NCBI GenBank assembly: GCA_034669905.1
Contig: JAXMOL010000003.1
Coordinates: 128,001 to 192,000, forward strand
Direction of reading: 5' to 3'
DNA length: 64,000 bases
Source of the DNA: Candidatus Hydrogenedentota bacterium
Lineage (GTDB): Bacteria > Hydrogenedentota > Hydrogenedentia > Hydrogenedentales > JAEUWI01
Shown one piece after another: positions 37,438 to 58,899 of this stretch; the first letter of the stretch is position 1; each line of letters starts with the position of its first letter. A program made the translations under genes and the position numbers. The notes under the pieces were generated by a model that worked only from the letters and a program-made list of their open reading frames with translations, was not told the origin of the DNA and did no database searches.

Positions 37438-38465
37438 GGGTTCTGCTCTGATAATACCGCTCATGCGGCAGTCCTGAGATTTTTGTATTCATCCCAAAAG
37501 GCATCCCATCGATTGGATTTTACATAACAACGAAGATCAAGAATCCGTTGTCCGCCCTCCCGTGTCCAACGCATTCCGCTTCGGTACATTCGGGTCTTAA
37601 CCAAGTTCTTGCACGCCGCCTCAACCGGGCCGCTCCCGATGGGAAGGCCTCGCCGCCTGAAATCAGCGTAATTCATTTTTCCTTTGTTTCGCCGGTAAAA
37701 GGTTCGTTGCGTGGCGAGATCTTTTTGCCTGGACTTTGGCAGCTTGCGGACTTTGGCGTGGTAGTCTATGGAATTCAGAATGCTTTGTGCGCCCTTGTCC
37801 TCTTCGAGCAGCTTCTTGGCGTATTGGCCGTACCAGGCGTCGGCCTCATCCGTTCCCTTGCCAAAGAGGGCCTCGGCGGCCAAGGACAGATGCTCGACGG
37901 AATGAAAGTAGTCAATGAGTTTTTCGTAGTCGTCGAAGCGTTCATTGCCTTCGAGGTATTTCCAGATGGCGCGCGCCCCATCGCATAGCATTATCTCCTT
38001 GACCGTCGCGGGACACAGTATTTCGGCAGCGTCCAGCTCCGCCTCGAATTTGGCCTTGAAGGTTGCGGCACGGTCTTCTGGCATATGGGCCGCATAGCAA
38101 CACCCCAGGCGTTGCGGGCACTTCTCGCCTTCTTTCACCTCGCCGTAGAGTGAAAAGCTACCCACCATGGCGTTCTTATAGGAGGTCTTCGTCTCTTTCT
38201 CCTTCTTGCCTTTGGGACGGTCTGTAGGCCGTCCCATCTTCTTGCCCTTTTCATTGAGCAATACGTTGACTCCATCCATGCTAGCGACAAGAACCCGTGT
38301 GCCTTCGGGGGCGCTTTCTTGCTCCCGGATGCCTTGTTCCAATTCCGCGCGACGCGCTGAAACGCGTTCTTCAATACGTTTCAGCGCCCGCTTTATGACC
38401 GTGGGATGGGGGTGGAAGAGCGCACTTTTCTCAAATAATCCAGCAGCTTCCTCCGGGAACCTCAT
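37438..38465 (-). mobile_element. ISKra4-family transposase, 5'-truncated
   Basis: MDGVNV, DGARAIW, IDYFHSVEHL, PIGSGPVEAACK, RSGMRW; stop at 37461, then a candidate terminal ...cagagcagaaccc at 37438-37450. Confidence 0.82.
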
Positions 38466-40212
38466 GTCCGTCAGCCGGGGGATCTATGGCGGGACGTTGA
38501 TGCCGCTCTATACCAACGTCGATATTTCCATGTTTCCCGGCTATGCCGATGTGAGCTTCGGCAAGGGCAACGACGCGGAATACCAGTTCGACGACCTGCG
38601 CTTCCTGGCGGCTTCTATCAGCGAGCTCTCGGCCAACCGGCGCTACGAATACGACGCCCTGGGTCGGCGCGTGCTCCAGACCGTGATCGATAGCGGGGTG
38701 CCCGTCAACACCTGGTTTGTCTATCCGCCTTCGGCGGACTTCCAGCATGGCGACCGGGTCATCGAGGAATACCGGGACCTGGAGGGTGCCGCGCACCAGT
38801 TGGAGTCACGCTACGTCTACGGGCAATACATCGACGAAGTGCTTCAGCGCGAGTGGGATCAGGGCAGCGATGGCGTCCCGGAAACGGTTCACTACTATCT
38901 CCACGACGACCTGTATCCTCCTACGGCGGACCTTCGGCACGTGGTGGGCATCACCGATAGCGACGGCGCCCTCGTCGAGCGCTACGAATACGGGGAGTAC
39001 GGCGCGCCAGAGGTTTTCCTGGCGGCGGGTGGCTCGCTTGGCGACGAATCGAGCGTCGGCAACCGCTATATGTTCAACGGCCGCGAGTACGACAGCCGCA
39101 CGAATCTCTACTGGTACCGCACCCGCTATATGGACCCGGCTCAGGGCCGCTTCATCGCGCGGGACACCATCGGTGCCTGGGGCGATGCGAACAACCTGGG
39201 GAATCCCTTTTCCTACGTGGGGAACAACCCCTGGAGCGGCCTGGACCCGTTTGGCCTCTACGGCAGCGCGGGTGGCGGCGAGGGCGACCCAATTCGCTGG
39301 AGAATGGAACACTGGAATGAGTACATTAGCCCGGTAGAGGCCGCCTTCCTACACGGAGGGCTGCAAGGGACTGCCGTAGTTATGGATACGGGCTGGCAGT
39401 CGGTGACCCTTGGGCATGGAGAGCGGCATTTCGAGAACGCGGGGGTCTATTCCAACGCCGACCCGGGCATTGTCGCGTCCAAGTTCGTGTCGGTCGTTGC
39501 CGTCGAGGCGGCTATCGCCGCAGGCACCGGCGGGCTGGGCAACGCGGCGCTGCGGGGCGGAGGAACCGCCATTAAAGCGCACCGAGGCCTCCTTGCCTAC
39601 GAGATCGCCGGTGGTGGCGTCCAGGTAGGCGGCGGCGCCTACAAAATATCGCAGGGCGACTACCTCGGCGGAAGCCTGGACTTCCTGGGTGGCACCATGA
39701 TGAGCGGCGGGGGTATGATGAATGCTCGCAGTTTCCGCCAAAGCTCATTGAGCATGGGACGAGGAAGCGGAAGCGGACCGGGTGCCGCACATATTAGCGA
39801 TCCGGCCTTTAATGGGGCTGTCCGTTCCCTGAATCCATCGGACATACGGTTCAGCCAGGCTACCGTATCGCATAATTTCGCCGAAGGTGGTCACACGATA
39901 AGTTCCACTGCGGCCCAACTGCGCAAGGGTGCGGATCCGAATAGTCTGTTTGATAGAATTAATGTTGTTGTGAAGGATGGCCAGTTTATTTCGTTGGACA
40001 ATCGTCGGCTCCGGGCGTTGCAGCGCGGCGGCATCGACGAGGTTGATGTAAACATATTGTCTTTCGACGACCCGAGAGTTCTCGCGGAGTTTAGAAGTAA
40101 GACCCGATTCGGTAATGTCCTACACGGTACAAGGATTCTCACTGTTCCAAGGGCGGCGTCGCACCCGCGTGGACGTATGTTGCTTAAGAAAATGGGAGCA
40201 ATAACCAGGTGA
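38464..40212 (+). pseudogene. RHS core fragment with ParB-like C-terminal toxin (5' part lost at the IS junction)
   Basis: YEYDALGRR, ERYEYGEYG, FNGREYD, YWYRTRYMDPAQGRF, NNPWSGLDPFG cleavage motif; tip IRFSQ...SLDNRRL. Confidence 0.85.
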
Positions 40213-40604
40213 TCGAGGAGATAGAACTAACTGAGAAACTCTTTGCGGAGCACCCTGTTTGGAGGTGGAACGACTCCAGGGATGCGCTTACCCCGGTTGC
40301 ACGGCACGTACCACTGCCAGAGGGAGATGATCTTTGGGTCAGGTCTCGATTCGTGGCACCCAATGAGGACGAATTGTCTGGATATATTGTCGCTAATGTC
40401 TATGGGGTAGAAGGTTTTAGTTTGTTCGTCCATGGCAAAGATTGTATGTTTGGAGAGTACATACAACATGACTTGGCAGCCAATCTGGCGTTCATAAGGA
40501 AGGCGTTTGCTAATCCAGATTGGGAGCTATTTCCTCTCAATTACAGTACGGACTTCCATTTCGAGGGCAAGCCGAATCTGTCAGGCGTTTTCGAGCCGTG
40601 GTGA
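40209..40604 (+). CDS. putative immunity protein for the ParB-like toxin
   Basis: 131 aa, GTGA overlap with the toxin stop, lower GC. Confidence 0.7.
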   Translation: MIEEIELTEKLFAEHPVWRWNDSRDALTPVARHVPLPEGDDLWVRSRFVAPNEDELSGYIVANVYGVEGFSLFVHGKDCMFGEYIQHDLAANLAFIRKAFANPDWELFPLNYSTDFHFEGKPNLSGVFEPW

Positions 40605-47037: not shown

Positions 47038-47154
47038 GGCGTGTGTCCCCGGTGAATGCGGTGTGAGGACGGATCATAACAGAGATGCGCACGGAGATTG
47101 GAAGGGGACCAGAGGGGGATGCGTGGCGGATGGGTTGGACGAGCTGCAAAAAAG

Positions 47155-47680
47155 AGTTGAACCACGAATGGACTCGAATTTACACGAATGGTGGCGGTAA
47201 TAGAAGGGCACCGAGAAACTAATGGAGGGTGCTAATCCGCACGCTTCGCGGTAAGTGGTCGTCCCGTTTTGTTCTCTTCCGTGACATTCTGTGCCTTCCG
47301 TGGTCGTACTGCATTTTCTCCCCGCGAGAACGTAGGGTGCTACCACGAGAGGCACGGAAATACACGGAAGGGGCTGAAATAAACGGAAGGCGGTCGACCG
47401 CCTCCAAAAGTTGAACCACGAATGGACTCGAAGTAACACGAATGGTGGCGGTAATAGAAGGGCGCTGAGCAGTTAATGGGTGGTGCTGATCCGTATGGCT
47501 TCGCGGTAAGTGGTCGTCCCGTTTTGTTCTTTTCCGTGACATTCTGTGCCTTCTGTGGTCGTACTGCATTTTCTTCCCGTGTGAACGTAGGGGGGCTACC
47601 ACGGAAGGCACGGAAATTTACGGAAGGCGGTCGGCCGCCTCAAAAAGTTGAACCACGAATGGACTCGAATTTACACGAAT
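47155..47680. repeat. tandem non-coding array: two ~250-bp units plus a third 35-bp head, built from ACCAC-type 9-10-nt periodic motifs
   Basis: agttgaaccacgaatggactcgaa..(t/a)acacgaat at 47155, 47409, 47646; inverted ttccgtgacattctgtgccttc(c/t)gtggt at ~47277 and ~47532; ctaccacg..aggcacggaa at ~47340 and ~47596. Confidence 0.9.
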
Positions 47681-48242
47681 AGCTTTGGCCGCGGAAGAAC
47701 CTGCCGCAGCCCTTGGTTGCAACCCGAAAAAGAGAATCTAAGACACTTATTGCTACGGGACCCTGGTAACGAGTGGGCAATTCAGAATCTTTCTCAAAGG
47801 CACCTTGCATCTTTGCAGACCAAATCGATTTCGGGACGCGCTGATCGAGCAGAAAGCTCGTGGCCAAGGTCTTGTAGTGGCAGACCTGGTCGGCCTCCCA
47901 TCGGGCATCGCGGTTGAGGAGGGGGCCATGATTTTCGCGACGGCGGGGTCGGCCTCTCTACTTGCCCGGGCGTGGAGCAAGAAGGAGCGGGTCTGGCGGG
48001 CGAGGATGTCTTCTACGGCGCGGGCCATTTCTTCGCTTACGGGCGGAGGACTTCTCACTGATTGCGAAGCCCATCTTTGAGTTGTCTTTCACGAGAGAAA
48101 ACCGGTGTAATTGTGCTACGCGGTCCTGCGGATATGCCCCCGGCGTTGGGCCGCTATCGCAGATCGCACCGTTGCAACGGGATGGCGCTTTGCCCATAAT
48201 GAATCTTTCGGGACGCCCAACCTACGGGGAGAAAGGCAGACG

Positions 48243-49337
48243 ATGACCGCGATCCAGGACCAAGCCGAGTTTGAGCAACTTCCCGATCTCTATCAGCGCT
48301 GGGTGACGGAATTGCTCCCCGACGGGATACCCCGGGAACGGGAGGCCACGTGCCTGGATTGCGCCATGTGCGGTACGCCTGGTGAAGCCAACCTAAGTGC
48401 CCTGGTCTTCTACAACCGGGAGACTAAATGCTGCACCTATTTTCCCGAACTGCCCAACTTCCTCGTGGGGCGGGCCGTCGCCGTGGATACGCCAGGCGGT
48501 GAAGCCTTGCGGCGTTTCATCGAGGACGATGGTGACTCCCGGGGATTGGCGACACTCCGTTCGGTCCGTCCCCATGAAAAAATTACGACGGTCTACGTCC
48601 ACCACCGTGCCGAGGGTTTCGGACAGGACCCGGAAATGGCTTGCCCCTATGCGATTGACGGTGGGGGCGATGTGGGCCGGGTCTGCGGGATCTGGAAGCA
48701 CCGCAACAGCGTCTGCTCCACCTGGTTTTGCAAACATACGAAGGGCGTCACAGGATTTTATTTCTGGCGCGCCCTGCAGGGTTGGCTCGACCACCTTGAG
48801 CGGGCCATGTCCTGGTGGGCCATAAGCCAGGTGCTGGATACCCCGGCGGCGGTTCTGTCGGCGGGCGAATATCGGGTCAATCAACGGCATGAAATTACCC
48901 TGCGCGACGATGCCTGGTCCCACTGGCCGGGCAGTCGCAGTGCCTTTTACGAGGCCTGCGCCGACAAAGTCGAAGGGCTTTCCGCCGCGGAGGTCGTGCG
49001 CATTGCCGGGGTGGAAGCCCAACTCCACCTGGTGGAAGTCGGCACCCGCCTCACCGAAGTCCATGCGACCCTTCCCCCGGCCCGACTCAAGGTCGCGCCC
49101 TATTCCATCATTCAGCAGGAGGAAACTCGGACGATTCTCCAGGCGCACCACTGGCCGGAGGCCTTACACGTGCCAAACAGCCTTATCCCGGTGCTGCGGT
49201 ATTTTGACGGGAGCCCAACGGAAACTACGCTGGAACGTATTCGGGTGGCGACACAGATTCGCCTGTCACCGGGCCTGGTACGGCGCCTCTACGATTTTGG
49301 CATTCTCGAGAAAATTTCGGGAGTTGGGCCGGGGTAG
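48243..49337 (+). CDS. Cys-cluster (YkgJ/CxxCxxCC-like, probable Fe-S) protein with a C-terminal PqqD/RRE-like domain; candidate RiPP maturase
   Basis: CLDCAMC, KCCTYFP, ACPY, CGIWKHRNSVCSTWFC; tail VLRYFDG...LVRRLYDFGILE; GAAAGG RBS. Confidence 0.7.
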   Translation: MTAIQDQAEFEQLPDLYQRWVTELLPDGIPREREATCLDCAMCGTPGEANLSALVFYNRETKCCTYFPELPNFLVGRAVAVDTPGGEALRRFIEDDGDSRGLATLRSVRPHEKITTVYVHHRAEGFGQDPEMACPYAIDGGGDVGRVCGIWKHRNSVCSTWFCKHTKGVTGFYFWRALQGWLDHLERAMSWWAISQVLDTPAAVLSAGEYRVNQRHEITLRDDAWSHWPGSRSAFYEACADKVEGLSAAEVVRIAGVEAQLHLVEVGTRLTEVHATLPPARLKVAPYSIIQQEETRTILQAHHWPEALHVPNSLIPVLRYFDGSPTETTLERIRVATQIRLSPGLVRRLYDFGILEKISGVGPG

Positions 49338-49459
49338 CCCAGCCCGTATTTACCGCCCAAGGGCCCGAAATCACGATGCGCTTTTCGTAAATGCGCATTT
49401 TTCATCATTTCCGGGGGCAGCGCTGGCGTTGTGAGACGGGCCCATCCCTCCGGGCTCGG

Positions 49460-49487
49460 TTGCAATGTGACGACTTTGCCGTATAAT
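49460..49487 (+). promoter_or_regulatory. sigma70-type promoter for the small peptide gene
   Basis: TTGCAA-16 nt-TATAAT, ~80 nt upstream of ATG 49568. Confidence 0.6.
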
Positions 49488-49567
49488 TACAGTACGTGCG
49501 GGTGCACCCCTCTGTGGGGTATGTCCCTAAGTAGATTGGCAAGCAGGGAAAACGAGAGGAAAGAGCA

Positions 49568-49780
49568 ATGGCTAACGTGGACGTAAATGATCTGGACAAG
49601 GAAAAAAACGACCCGAAAAAAGAGACCACCCTCAGTGAAGAAGACGTTAGTCACGTGAAGGGCGGGGCCGGTTATCTCAAGATCGGGGATATCAAAGGGG
49701 AATATACATCGACGACGGGCGGTAAACAGGAGCCTTATATTGTCGCGCCTACGATCGACAAGAAGGTATTCAAATTCTAA
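49568..49780 (+). CDS. double-glycine leader peptide, candidate RiPP precursor
   Basis: GAGAGGA RBS; acidic leader ending LSEEDVSHVKGG; 37-aa core AGYLKIGDIKGEYTSTTGGKQEPYIVAPTIDKKVFKF. Confidence 0.78.
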   Translation: MANVDVNDLDKEKNDPKKETTLSEEDVSHVKGGAGYLKIGDIKGEYTSTTGGKQEPYIVAPTIDKKVFKF

Positions 49781-50057: not shown

Positions 50058-50090
50058 CACTCCCGTCGCATGCGACGGGGGTGTTTTTTT
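50058..50090 (+). terminator. intrinsic terminator
   Basis: stem cactcccgtcgc/gcgacgggggtg followed by T7. Confidence 0.75.
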
Positions 50091-50180: not shown

Positions 50181-50909
50181 CTACGCGGTCAGGTCCTTTT
50201 TCATGGCACGGCGTGCATGCCAGGTGTGGATGAGCAACGTCTGACAAATGCTCAACGGTTGCTCAAAGCCACTCTCGGTGAGGAGTGTGGCGAGGGTAGC
50301 AGGCGGGACCACGGCAACGCCCTTCTGAATGGCGTTGCGGTAGTTCTTGAGCACTTCCTCATCGCTATTGTTGTGCCGCATGAGTGCCAACCACTGCAGG
50401 AAAAGCCGGTCGCTGGGATCATCGTTCGCACGGGTCGCCAAATCCGCCGTAATCAACTGTCCACCCGGAAGTAGTCGTGCAGCGATACCCCGAAAGAAAT
50501 CGCGCCGGGCCTTTGGGTCGAGGACAAACTGGGAAACCAGAATAGACGTCGCCACATCGAACAGGCCCGATTCTGGAAGAGAATCAAGATAACCCACGTG
50601 AAAGGTGCACCGGTCGGCGATACCTGCCTCTTCTGCCTTGTGCCGGGCACGGGCCAGCATGGGGGCAGCGGGCTCCACGAGGGTAAAGGTCCAGTCGGGG
50701 TAGGCGTCTGCCAAATAGCACACTTCCGCACCGGTGCCCGCCCCCACACAGAGGACGCGGGATGCCGATGATGCATCGGCCAGGGCGGCGCGCATACACA
50801 GATGGAGCGCATCTTTCAGCGGCGTAAGTTTGGCGAATTGTTCGTCATAGACGGCGGCGTGATCTTCATCAAAGGCGATGCGGGTTCCCTGCTGGGTCAT
50901 TGGAGCCAT
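50181..50909 (-). CDS. class I SAM-dependent methyltransferase
   Basis: VLCVGAGTGAE motif I, VEP, FDVATSILVSQF, LLPGG; GAGG RBS. Confidence 0.88.
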   Translation of the reverse strand: MAPMTQQGTRIAFDEDHAAVYDEQFAKLTPLKDALHLCMRAALADASSASRVLCVGAGTGAEVCYLADAYPDWTFTLVEPAAPMLARARHKAEEAGIADRCTFHVGYLDSLPESGLFDVATSILVSQFVLDPKARRDFFRGIAARLLPGGQLITADLATRANDDPSDRLFLQWLALMRHNNSDEEVLKNYRNAIQKGVAVVPPATLATLLTESGFEQPLSICQTLLIHTWHARRAMKKDLTA

Positions 50910-55960: not shown

Positions 55961-56989
55961 TCAGGCCCGGGATGGTTCCACTTCGACGGAAACTTTTGAG
56001 ACACGATAGGGAGACACGGAATTGCATGTGCCTTTCTGGGTGTCGAAGAGGGCCAGGTTTATTCCTTCGCCCACAGAGCTGCCGTAGATGACACCGTCGA
56101 AGCCGCTTTTCTTGATGAACTCACAGAGGTACTGGCTGGGGATATAGTCAATGGCGGCGCTATGCGGTAAGACTGGACGTGACAGCTCCTTACCAAGACG
56201 TTCCAACAGGGGTAGGTCGGCACGTAGCTGTCCAATTTCGCCAGAGCCTGACAAGATAAACGGAGAAACGTGGCCGCGCGGGTCTCGTAGGTCGGCGGCA
56301 CGAATTCTGGGAATTGTAAACTCTCCTACGGAAGCCCGAGCGCCTGTGTGTGGTCTGACTTCGGCTACGGCTGTTTCAGGTCTGGAGGCCAAATAGAGAT
56401 ACGGGATACCTGCGGGGTTTGCTCTTCCATGAGATGCGATACGTCTTGGTGGCGCTCCCATTTTCTCTATCGGAAAATTCTCATCCTCGCCACATATACG
56501 AGCTCGGAACCAAGTCTCCGGGAGTTTTCTTGCCAATAGATGGTCCAGCAGTTCTCTAAGTCTGTCTGTATCCAGGTTCTCATCCAAGAACCATCGGTTA
56601 CGGGACATCATTTCATCCCGTAATGCATCCCATTGTACCAATCCTTCGCTCTCATAGCTTGTGGAGGGGGAAAAGGGCTTTCGGACGATCTCCCCGTCGT
56701 CCAGAATGTCGCCCAAAAGAATCTTGGCATCAGAAAGACTCATTTGTTCGTCAGTGAAGAGTTTCCAATCCTTCTTCATCCACTCTACGAGAGAGTAGCC
56801 GTCTGGGTCTGGCTCATATACATTGGTGAGAAGCTCGAAGTAGTCGGCAAGTTTCACTGGCTCAACCAGAGAAACCTCTTCAGATTTGCAATAATTGCAA
56901 GTGCCAGACCTCGAAGATAGCGATGGGATGATACTATCTCGTAGGCCATGGTCGTCGAAGCATTCAGCGCAGCAGTATGTTGTAGCCAT
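55961..56989 (-). CDS. RES-domain protein (putative NAD+-consuming effector) with Cys-rich N-terminal domain
   Basis: CCAECF..CNYC; FRAR, GRANPAGIPYLYLA, TAVAEVRP, YIPSQYLCEFIK, GVIYGSS, NLALFD. Confidence 0.88.
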   Translation of the reverse strand: MATTYCCAECFDDHGLRDSIIPSLSSRSGTCNYCKSEEVSLVEPVKLADYFELLTNVYEPDPDGYSLVEWMKKDWKLFTDEQMSLSDAKILLGDILDDGEIVRKPFSPSTSYESEGLVQWDALRDEMMSRNRWFLDENLDTDRLRELLDHLLARKLPETWFRARICGEDENFPIEKMGAPPRRIASHGRANPAGIPYLYLASRPETAVAEVRPHTGARASVGEFTIPRIRAADLRDPRGHVSPFILSGSGEIGQLRADLPLLERLGKELSRPVLPHSAAIDYIPSQYLCEFIKKSGFDGVIYGSSVGEGINLALFDTQKGTCNSVSPYRVSKVSVEVEPSRA

Positions 56990-56997
56990 CGATTAGA

Positions 56998-57957
56998 TCA
57001 GCTCACTGACTCTAAGTGACGGGCCACCGTTTCGATATGGTGCTTCATGGAGAGCTTTTTCACGTAACCTAGTCCGGGAAAGTGTCCCTTACGGTGTAGT
57101 TTCCGAAACTCCTCAATAGCACTCGTTTCGTATAGCATCGAAGTGCCGGAATCAAGGGTTTCGGTTAGCTTTTGAAGGGCCTCTGCAAATTTTCCGGCAG
57201 GGTCTGTAGGGGTGTCATTGCTATCCGACACAAAGTGATGTATGTACATGACGTCTTCGGCATCGTGTTTGATAAAGGTGAGATGGATTGCTACGGCGTA
57301 CGCGGGCCCGCCGCCCTCTGAGTAGTCGTCTCCAACAATAAGAAAGTCTCCAAAACCATCCATCACCATATCGTCATAGGTCAGGTGGAGTTCAGAAAAC
57401 TTCTCGACCGGGGGGTAGTCGGCATTGCGCTGTCGCCTGAATCCATCTCGTAGAAGAATGCGTGTAGCATCTTTGAAATGCTTTCGGTATAGCAGCTGCG
57501 CGTGTTCCTCAATGAATACGTGCTGCGCTTTGGTGAGGTCAGTGTGCTCTTGCAGTGCTTCAGCCAGTTTCCTGGGTTCCGTGAATCCGGCGTGCACAAG
57601 CGTTGGGCGATGATCCCGATGTGCTTCAGCTAGGCGTAGAGCGTCTTCTGTAGTAGTATCATTGCGAAGTAAGATGCCAGCAGAAATGAATTCGCAGTCA
57701 TCATAGTTCGTTCCAATCATGTTGGAAATGCTGTCACTATCGCCGCTATGGTCGCCATAGAACGGATTTACGATGAGGATGGCTTTTCCGTGTGCGTCGC
57801 GAACAGCTTCCAGCGACTTTTCCAGCCCCCGAAGTGTCTCTCGAACTGGCTCAATGATAGGCACGAAGCTTTTCACCAGAGAAGGGGTGGCGCATTCGCG
57901 AATGGCAATGAGTTCAAATTGTTTGCCCCGAAAGTAGGGATAGTAGCGTTGCCCCAT
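56998..57957 (-). CDS. sce7725 family protein
   Basis: YYPYFRGKQFELIA, PIIEPV, NADYP..E.FS, GFGDFLIVG..YSEGGGPAYAVAIH, FPGLGYVKKLSMKHH. Confidence 0.85.
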   Translation of the reverse strand: MGQRYYPYFRGKQFELIAIRECATPSLVKSFVPIIEPVRETLRGLEKSLEAVRDAHGKAILIVNPFYGDHSGDSDSISNMIGTNYDDCEFISAGILLRNDTTTEDALRLAEAHRDHRPTLVHAGFTEPRKLAEALQEHTDLTKAQHVFIEEHAQLLYRKHFKDATRILLRDGFRRQRNADYPPVEKFSELHLTYDDMVMDGFGDFLIVGDDYSEGGGPAYAVAIHLTFIKHDAEDVMYIHHFVSDSNDTPTDPAGKFAEALQKLTETLDSGTSMLYETSAIEEFRKLHRKGHFPGLGYVKKLSMKHHIETVARHLESVS

Positions 57958-57963
57958 GTCGTA

Positions 57964-58851
57964 TTAGATCCATTCTCTGGTTACGGTAAATGGGTCATTG
58001 ATGGTCTTTACCAAACGCGCGCGCTCGGTCTGCCGTATCGGTATTGAGAGCGCCGCTGCGTGCAAAGAAGACGGCAACTGCAATACCAGGTCGTTGTAGG
58101 GCGCGAGACTGCGGCTGTACTTTAGCGTTCGAACCATCTGTCTATGTAGCGTGGTTGGGTCCAGATCCGAAAATGCACGTTTCAATACTTTGCGGCGCAT
58201 TGTATTGGGGACTTCGGGGACGTCCACCTCAAGCGAATTCAAAATGGACATCGCTTCGTCAGTTCGCAGACAGTCGAGTACGGAGGAGGGGTAAATGCGA
58301 TTAGGTTCTTCGATAGCTTCACGCACAGTAGATATCTGATAGCGCTTCGAAAGGCACAAGACGCCCACATCCTCCGGAGTCAACGAGAGAATTCGGTCAA
58401 TGTGGCATTCACTCGCTATGACGTTCACTTCTGCGAAAACGCGCTTGTACATCTCGACTTGCTTTTCGAGCCGAACGAGTGAGTCGCGCTCAGACTTGAT
58501 TTCATATGCCGTCGAGGTGCCATTGAGAATTACGAGATCGGCCTTGCGTCTGCCGACACGAAACTCGCTCAGCATAGAGGCTGTTCGAAGGGAATGTCTG
58601 CCCAGAAGTATTTTTTGTGTGAGGGCGGACCGGTAGACGTACTCGTCTCGGTTTCCTGATGTCTTGAGTAAAGCAAATGCTGAGTCAAAGACATCGCCTA
58701 CCGTAGCAGAAGAGTCGATGCATATTGGGAGATTAGACAACTCCGCAAGGCGTCTGAAGAGCGATGAACGGCCTGTGCGCGCCAGTTCCCGAAAAACAGT
58801 CGACGAAAACATGCGCGTAATGGCAGCTAGGTCTGTTGCACATTTCGGCAT
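57964..58851 (-). CDS. sce7726 family protein (PD-(D/E)xK-like nuclease motif)
   Basis: RDEYVYR, LLGRHSLRTA, EFRVGRRKADLVILNG, YEIKSERDSL.RL..Q; GGAGG RBS before ATG 58851. Confidence 0.85.
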   Translation of the reverse strand: MPKCATDLAAITRMFSSTVFRELARTGRSSLFRRLAELSNLPICIDSSATVGDVFDSAFALLKTSGNRDEYVYRSALTQKILLGRHSLRTASMLSEFRVGRRKADLVILNGTSTAYEIKSERDSLVRLEKQVEMYKRVFAEVNVIASECHIDRILSLTPEDVGVLCLSKRYQISTVREAIEEPNRIYPSSVLDCLRTDEAMSILNSLEVDVPEVPNTMRRKVLKRAFSDLDPTTLHRQMVRTLKYSRSLAPYNDLVLQLPSSLHAAALSIPIRQTERARLVKTINDPFTVTREWI

Positions 58852-58899
58852 GTCCCCTCCGTTCATTATGTAAGCCTTATATTGTCGATACTGAACTTG

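Follow-up and report, generated by a model that had tools for sequence, protein, structure and literature searches.

FliB is a methylase of surface lysines, at target sites without a sequence consensus. According to the report on this enzyme (PMC8598068), FliB has eight conserved cysteines and one [4Fe-4S] cluster bound through a CX4CX3CC motif, and the mechanism of Fe-S-dependent lysine methylation is left open there. Maturases such as TigE, MibB/NisB, MccB, McbB, TbiB1 and PqqD depend on an RRE, which PMC12710340 defines by its βββ-ααα order. Double-glycine peptides handled by peptidase-ABC exporters include class II bacteriocins, ComC and the NHLP clan. Here we describe a gene pair from a Candidatus Hydrogenedentota bacterium that shares features with each of these systems. 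The pair lies in a stretch of 64,000 nucleotides, which we call the window. The architecture of GG leader, RRE and C39 exporter is known; the catalytic domain and the vocabulary of the core peptides have no assignment to a known class. A literature search, with subscription journals mostly outside its scope, returned no description of the enzyme family or of Hcp-fragment peptides, and the claim of novelty is bounded by the RRE data sets of PMC12710340, which may already list these proteins. A sequence-only reading of this DNA had proposed a RiPP system, and the analysis below supports that proposal for the most part, with a chemistry that is putative.

The gene pair and its cysteine-rich enzyme

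The first gene (48243–49337, plus strand) starts with an ATG behind a GGAG/AAGG ribosome binding site (48228–48236, plus strand, read from sequence). It codes for a cysteine-rich protein of 364 residues with a C-terminal RRE-like domain, a predicted RiPP maturase to which we refer as the enzyme. After a gap of 230 bp on the same strand follows a precursor ORF of 70 residues (49568–49780), which stands behind a GAGAGG ribosome binding site (49554–49559, plus strand, read from sequence). Both ORFs had been assigned to these positions by the sequence-only reading. The precursor consists of an acidic double-glycine leader of 33 residues (49568–49666, plus strand; leader profile score 34) that ends in LSEEDVSHVKGG, and a core of 37 residues (49667–49780, plus strand) with the Hcp-first-strand-like start YLKIGDIKGE. 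As claimed earlier, this core is free of cysteine and rich in lysine, tyrosine and threonine (6 Lys, 3 Tyr and 4 Thr). The same reading had given the precursor its own promoter and ribosome binding site. The latter exists, and a σ70-like candidate (TTGCAA-16-TATAAT, 49460–49487, plus strand) matches the consensus at 10/12 positions, but the promoter does not exceed chance, because the scan returned two σ70-like sites compared to 1.2 ± 1.1 in shuffled sequences. An upstream scan for σ54-like -24/-12 sites found none before either gene.

A terminator-like hairpin (50058–50083, plus strand; 11-pair stem and T tail, consensus match only) lies between the precursor and a gene for a class I SAM methyltransferase (50181–50909, minus strand) that converges on it. 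We rejected this methyltransferase as a part of the system: among homologous loci only that of the window has one. Just upstream of the enzyme, two to three direct repeats of ~250 bp with internal inverted arms form a REP-like region (47152–47730). Elsewhere in the window, a three-gene run (55961–58866, minus strand) codes for two proteins without a Pfam match and a RES-domain protein, and presumably resembles a candidate defence cassette. By inspection, a transposase-like ORF overlaps the start of an Rhs-core-like ORF (37461–40604), which has a C-terminal tip and a small gene downstream.

The enzyme has no match in Pfam, NCBIfam or PDB sequences. One search returned 453 homologues, and the family extends to 1,212 clusters at E ≤ 1e-30 (50%-identity representatives), with the closest relatives among named records found in Candidatus Hydrogenedentales. 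We aligned the window protein with those from 78 of the 80 loci described below; L035 and L046 were left out for internal stops. Eight cysteines (C37, C40, C63, C64, C134, C148, C158 and C163) are invariant in all 79 rows, and so are W151, R154, K164 and H165. These residues fall within a region (48351–48737, plus strand) composed of C37xxC40, C63C64, C134P and C148-x-IW-xx-R154-xxx-C158-xx-WF-C163-K164-H165, which we predict to form a metal or Fe-S site. Such a set of invariant Cys, Arg, Lys, His and Trp residues across phyla resembles an active site. Every cysteine group named in the sequence-only reading is present (C37/C40/C43, C63C64, C134P and C148–C163), but its CxxCxxC motif describes the window protein rather than the family: C43 is conserved to at least 90% in a 52-row alignment and to less than 90% in the 79 genome-derived rows, and the conserved pattern is CxxC-x22-CC.

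The AlphaFold model of the enzyme (pLDDT 87) found no match at E ≤ 0.001 in a Foldseek search against the PDB and viral models. When the N-terminal domain was modelled separately (pLDDT 89.9), it retrieved generic helices only (best Z 5.1) and gave no evidence of a new fold. A Rossmann methyltransferase domain was not detected by Pfam search or fold comparisons, and this separates the enzyme from the Rickettsia PKMT1/PKMT2-type methyltransferases. Nor does the protein contain the radical-SAM, YcaO, LanB or ThiF domains of known RRE-dependent maturases.

A weak lead to a known family points to YkgJ and FliB (PF03692), a kinship that the first reading had suggested. The C-P...C-x-I-W-xx-R-xxx-C half of the cysteine region aligns with YkgJ proteins: hhalign against 21 YkgJ sequences gave a score of 27.9 (E 0.0026, probability 11.5%), compared to 22.3 for the best of 30 column shuffles, over residues 133–171 only, the C-terminal half of the cysteine region. 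An atlas returned a YkgJ cluster at 0.82, which serves as a lead only. PF03692 itself matches 13 of 52 relatives, all below the cut-off (best E 0.0085), and the window enzyme yields no match at E ≤ 1 and does not reach the Pfam cut-off. The enzyme shares the number of eight conserved cysteines that PMC8598068 gives for FliB, and its putative substrates are lysine-rich and diverse in sequence. Unlike YkgJ and FliB, it carries an RRE, scores under the Pfam cut-off and has a leader peptide as its putative substrate. The contiguous N-terminal CxxCxxCC of YkgJ, or CX4CX3CC of FliB (compared by description only), is absent; the invariant pattern is C37xxC40-x22-C63C64. Kinship is suggestive only. 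The enzyme may work like FliB; membership in PF03692 is not established.

The first reading had described the tail as PqqD-like, and the last ~80 residues do model as a βββ-ααα winged helix with RREs as best matches. The domain (residues ~279–360; 49077–49322, plus strand) is predicted with pLDDT above 90 and contains strands at 287–292, 296–301 and 307–311 followed by helices at 316–320, 326–337 and 343–351. Its best structural match is the RRE of TigE (Z 8.1, rmsd 2.9, 80 aligned residues), followed by MibB (Z 7.6), MccB (7.3), PbtF (6.9), TbtB (6.8) and ThcOx (6.8); the RREs of TbiB1, NisB, McbB and PqqD match as well. The top 12 matches are mostly RiPP RREs (Z 5.7–8.1), moderate values in that the structure-comparison tool rates the range of 5–8 as ambiguous. 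Winged helices from outside RiPP biosynthesis match similarly (PKMT2, Z 6.4; Rv2067c, 5.5). We describe the tail as a predicted RRE fold. As in RRE-dependent maturases, this domain is fused to a putative catalytic domain; in contrast to these, it sits C-terminal to a cysteine-rich domain without a Pfam, NCBIfam or clear PDB match. Comparison of leader charge with RRE charge in 36 pairs showed no anticorrelation (rho -0.21, p 0.22).

Peptide genes beside enzyme homologues

Short leader-core genes adjoin RRE-dependent maturases, and the same is true here. From 176 confirmed loci we took the best 80, which span many phyla, and searched them with a leader profile built with the tested locus left out. 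The first round detected 71 ORFs in 33 of the 80 loci (1.07 Mb) compared to 11 in the 7.44-Mb genome of the window's own organism, so the peptide gene occurs beside the enzyme more often than by chance. With the second-round profile 35 loci contain a double-glycine peptide, and one more was assigned by eye. The recurrence of GG-leader ORFs next to homologues, proposed with the RiPP reading as a check on it, is thus observed in 36 of 80 loci. In 28 of the 35 profile-found loci a core lies within 500 bp of the enzyme, and these cover at least six phyla. The two glycines are invariant in 40 aligned precursors, and the leaders give weak matches to models of known double-glycine leaders.

A second lysine-rich peptide type, assigned by eye, is encoded directly upstream of the enzyme in 11 of 80 loci. 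It has a hydrophobic or Tat-like start, a QPxGG motif and a lysine-rich tail (L009, L022, L033, L040, L058, L061, L062, L066 and L068; variants in L055 and L059). The tail in L022 resembles the start of Hcp, and those in L061, L066 and L068 are poly-lysine. In three other loci (L025, L032 and L076) the position just upstream of the enzyme is taken not by a leader peptide but by a peptidoglycan-binding domain whose tail is of low complexity. No precursor was detectable in 30 of 80 loci. Among 25 genomes with such loci, 18 contain no match to the GG profile and 7 a weak match at most, which disfavors a universal link between the enzyme and GG peptides.

The types of peptide sort with the phylogeny of the enzyme: a quick tree requires 2 changes for the QPxGG label compared to 10.5 after shuffling, and 9 for the GG label compared to 26.6, a clustering for which kinship alone accounts in part. 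Only GG loci encode C39 domains (12 loci), HlyD (12) or a σ54 activator (11). Among 121 genomes of the phylum, 9 contain the enzyme; the precursor occurs in the same 9 and, as a weak match, in one more, and a TIGR04500-like gene in the 9 and 3 others. Because all 9 genomes belong to one family, this co-occurrence amounts to about one independent observation. From one acidobacterial class we scanned 251 genomes, of which 4 contain the enzyme and all 4 the precursor; two of the 4 were new to the set. A search of the same 251 genomes with a DNA pattern of GG plus the Hcp word was discarded as mostly noise, since only G123 and G323 of 13 matched genomes were real.

The neighborhoods hold other genes of interest. 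Across phyla, the enzyme is repeatedly accompanied by a small peptide in which K/Q-L/I-L/T-F-G comes after a GG-like site (L120:2752–2943, L123:2803–3009, L125:1061–1267, L015:3384–3548, L056:4221–4307 and L021:9508–9681); it is more constant than other cores and perhaps a signal. L016 and L029 each have two B12 radical-SAM genes downstream of the enzyme, interleaved with many GG peptides, and one of these genes reaches 680 bits with the ApyD model, whose cut-off is 750. In L038 (2625–7106, minus strand) a protein of 1,493 residues with tandem FFKYDSQF-type repeats at its end converges on the enzyme and is a possible protein-borne substrate.

In the window's own genome the pair is not alone. 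Contig C6 encodes a paralogue with 44% identity to the window enzyme, behind which lie genes for a σ54 activator and two precursors. The core of one precursor begins with the same AGYLKIGDIKGE as the window core. Facing these precursors are a TIGR04500-like gene, a cNMP-cNMP-C39-ABC exporter (G000:C6:27891–31010, in whose sequence the Cys, His and Asp residues of a C39 site can be recognized) and HlyD. This arrangement resembles known double-glycine/peptidase-ABC systems but differs from them by the two cNMP domains of the exporter, by the TIGR04500-like partner and by the dedicated Cys/RRE protein that accompanies the peptides. The absence of an exporter from the window had led the first reading to suggest processing in trans, which the C39-ABC and HlyD genes elsewhere in the genome make plausible. 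Further precursors lie on contigs C1, C28, C38 and C47, and 10 of 11 leader-profile matches in the genome look like true precursors. Near-identical precursor units of ~250 bp run off the contig ends at C47:63321–63819 and C38:80855–81366; they are probably one tandem array broken by assembly. Also on C6 (21445–22799; L082:2445–3799, minus strand), an arginine-rich GG peptide adjoins a protein of 350 residues without a significant Pfam match, which we take to be amidinotransferase-like and possibly an arginine-modifying partner of that peptide. The pair is absent from the 80 loci; a similar peptide occurs in L123.

Lysine content and vocabulary of the core peptides

Lysine is the most enriched residue of the cores. 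It occurs in 92 of 95 distinct cores (11.5% of residues), compared to 57–70 expected at 4–6% lysine, and in all 44 cores behind acidic leaders; cysteine accounts for 0.3%. The cores thus differ from those of known RRE-dependent maturases in being nearly cysteine-free and lysine-rich. The leaders contain 18% lysine. Short disordered peptides are often lysine-rich, and because of this and the relatedness of the cores the lysine signal is weakened.

An RRE-dependent maturase could also catalyze other chemistry, such as an aromatic-to-lysine crosslink, a hydroxylation or a different reaction of radical or oxidative type. The RRE and the gene neighborhood argue for such an enzyme just as well, and the motif [YFW]-x-K is present in 32 of 95 cores compared to 15.1 ± 3.1 in shuffled ones. 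R154, K164 and H165 are invariant, and the first cysteine motif is unlike that of FliB. Moreover, a methylase is already at hand in one locus: at L060:2300–6902 the enzyme homologue overlaps the stop of a gene for a PKMT1-like lysine methyltransferase, which could methylate there, so that a second lysine methylase looks redundant. This homologue is also convergent with a B12 radical-SAM gene, and no precursor was seen beside it. Its coupling to a lysine methyltransferase gene also counts in favor of the main explanation given below. Against other chemistry, one Hcp-like word is common to 14 of the 32 cores with aromatic-x-K, and 63 of 95 cores are without the motif. The poly-lysine tails next to three homologues (L061, L066 and L068) contain no aromatic residues, and no other residue recurs in as many cores as lysine. 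We consider an alternative chemistry rather unlikely, and give lysine as the target of modification equal weight for and against. Methylation as the reaction is a tentative assignment that we hold to be somewhat doubtful.

Many cores differ from those of known double-glycine peptides by their likeness to fragments of Hcp, VgrG and prepilin-type proteins, which the sequence-only reading had not noticed. We scored the 95 cores on a profile built from 11 Hcp proteins, and 23 attain the 99th percentile of shuffled sequences. Most align to profile positions 8–37, others to 64–86 and 94–139, and 14 of 95 carry the word YLKIGDIKGE. The window core scores 3.8 bits over ~14 residues, a value reached by 44 of 5,000 shuffles; it has no Pfam match and lacks the full tube fold of Hcp (PF05638, ~130–160 residues). 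It may therefore be said to resemble an Hcp fragment, not an Hcp; this likeness is weak alone, and the core joins the Hcp-like group because of the word common to 14 cores. A Pfam Hcp search in 24 enzyme-bearing genomes found GG leaders fused to different pieces of Hcp. A full Hcp was not found in G123, G124, G126, G127 and G134, genomes that may be incomplete and that gave short matches only. Seven PAVQ cores score 8.5–18 bits on a profile of the prepilin-type proteins of the window's own genome, which we take to be DUF1559, compared to at most 5.0 for shuffles. For one core the match is to VgrG models, at E~0.001. Two further ideas were abandoned. A recent capture of the window core from the organism's own Hcp gene was rejected when no DNA similarity was found, and we could not confirm a likeness between other core words and the motifs of tail-tube, FG-GAP, GIY-YIG and HX9DG type.

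A possible maturation and export pathway

That the enzyme acts on double-glycine peptides is probable. An alternative is that the peptides leave the cell without modification, as class II bacteriocins or pheromones do, that the enzyme targets folded proteins through a winged helix working as in protein lysine methyltransferases, and that adjacency reflects a shared genomic island. The 30 loci without a precursor and the 18 of 25 genomes without a GG-profile match are consistent with this idea, as is the similar winged-helix domain in PKMT2 and Rv2067c. Against it, a peptide lies within 500 bp in 28 of 35 loci from at least six phyla, peptide type tracks the enzyme tree, and each of the 4 enzyme-bearing genomes among the 251 from the acidobacterial class, two of the 4 already in the set, has a precursor. 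We regard this alternative as improbable.

About equally improbable is a metal-binding peptide sensor that would bind peptides through the RRE and control the neighboring σ54 activator, a reading for which speak the activator in 11 of 80 loci (each also with GG peptides; on C6 it comes immediately after the paralogue), an AAA domain that starts at residue 21–46 in the six activator copies scanned and leaves no room for a sensor domain, and σ54-like -24/-12 sites upstream of 15 of 94 precursors compared to 4 antisense (L002, L003, L005, L043, L082, L083, L085, L086, L122 and L124), but against which stand 69 of 80 loci, the window included, that have no σ54 activator within the fetched DNA, the active-site-like appearance of the invariant Cys, Arg, Lys, His and Trp, and best fold matches to the RREs of enzymes.

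We return to an RRE-guided Fe-S maturase of an undescribed RiPP class that modifies core lysines before export through the C6 machinery. The leader binding, cofactor, chemistry, export and biological role that we infer would proceed as follows. The double-glycine leader would be bound by the RRE predicted at the C terminus, and an iron-sulfur cluster would be coordinated by the eight invariant cysteines. This site would modify lysines of the core, for which N-methylation with SAM, as in FliB, is the most probable reaction. Cleavage behind Gly-Gly and secretion of the core would fall to the C39-ABC exporter and HlyD from C6. The window pair would then be a satellite of a larger system, in which two enzymes and at least 10 precursor genes are spread over the genome. 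Its products may be modified mimics of strands from surface machines that function as signals or decoys, and this mimic or signal role is the least supported step. We judge the explanation as a whole to be evenly poised. A more far-reaching version, in which an Fe-S enzyme marks lysines, by methylation or otherwise, on a collection of secreted excerpts from Hcp, VgrG and prepilin-type proteins that act as decoys, assembly poisons or alarm signals, is speculative and in our view unlikely.

These findings give a family of over 1,200 unannotated clusters (50% identity) a candidate substrate in the adjoining gene, and point to an RRE-guided enzyme with a cysteine domain of a type without a solved structure. 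If related to FliB, it would offer a model system, small and soluble, in which to study lysine methylation that depends on Fe-S. The enzyme is tied to exported-type peptides that resemble pieces of the T6SS and of pilin-type proteins, which raises the question as to what function such fragments may have between bacteria. Should the idea of secreted excerpts be true, the locus would supply the maturase for arrays of Hcp-snippet peptides, and modified strands would act against the nanomachines of neighbors in many phyla, including some bacteria in which no full Hcp was found.
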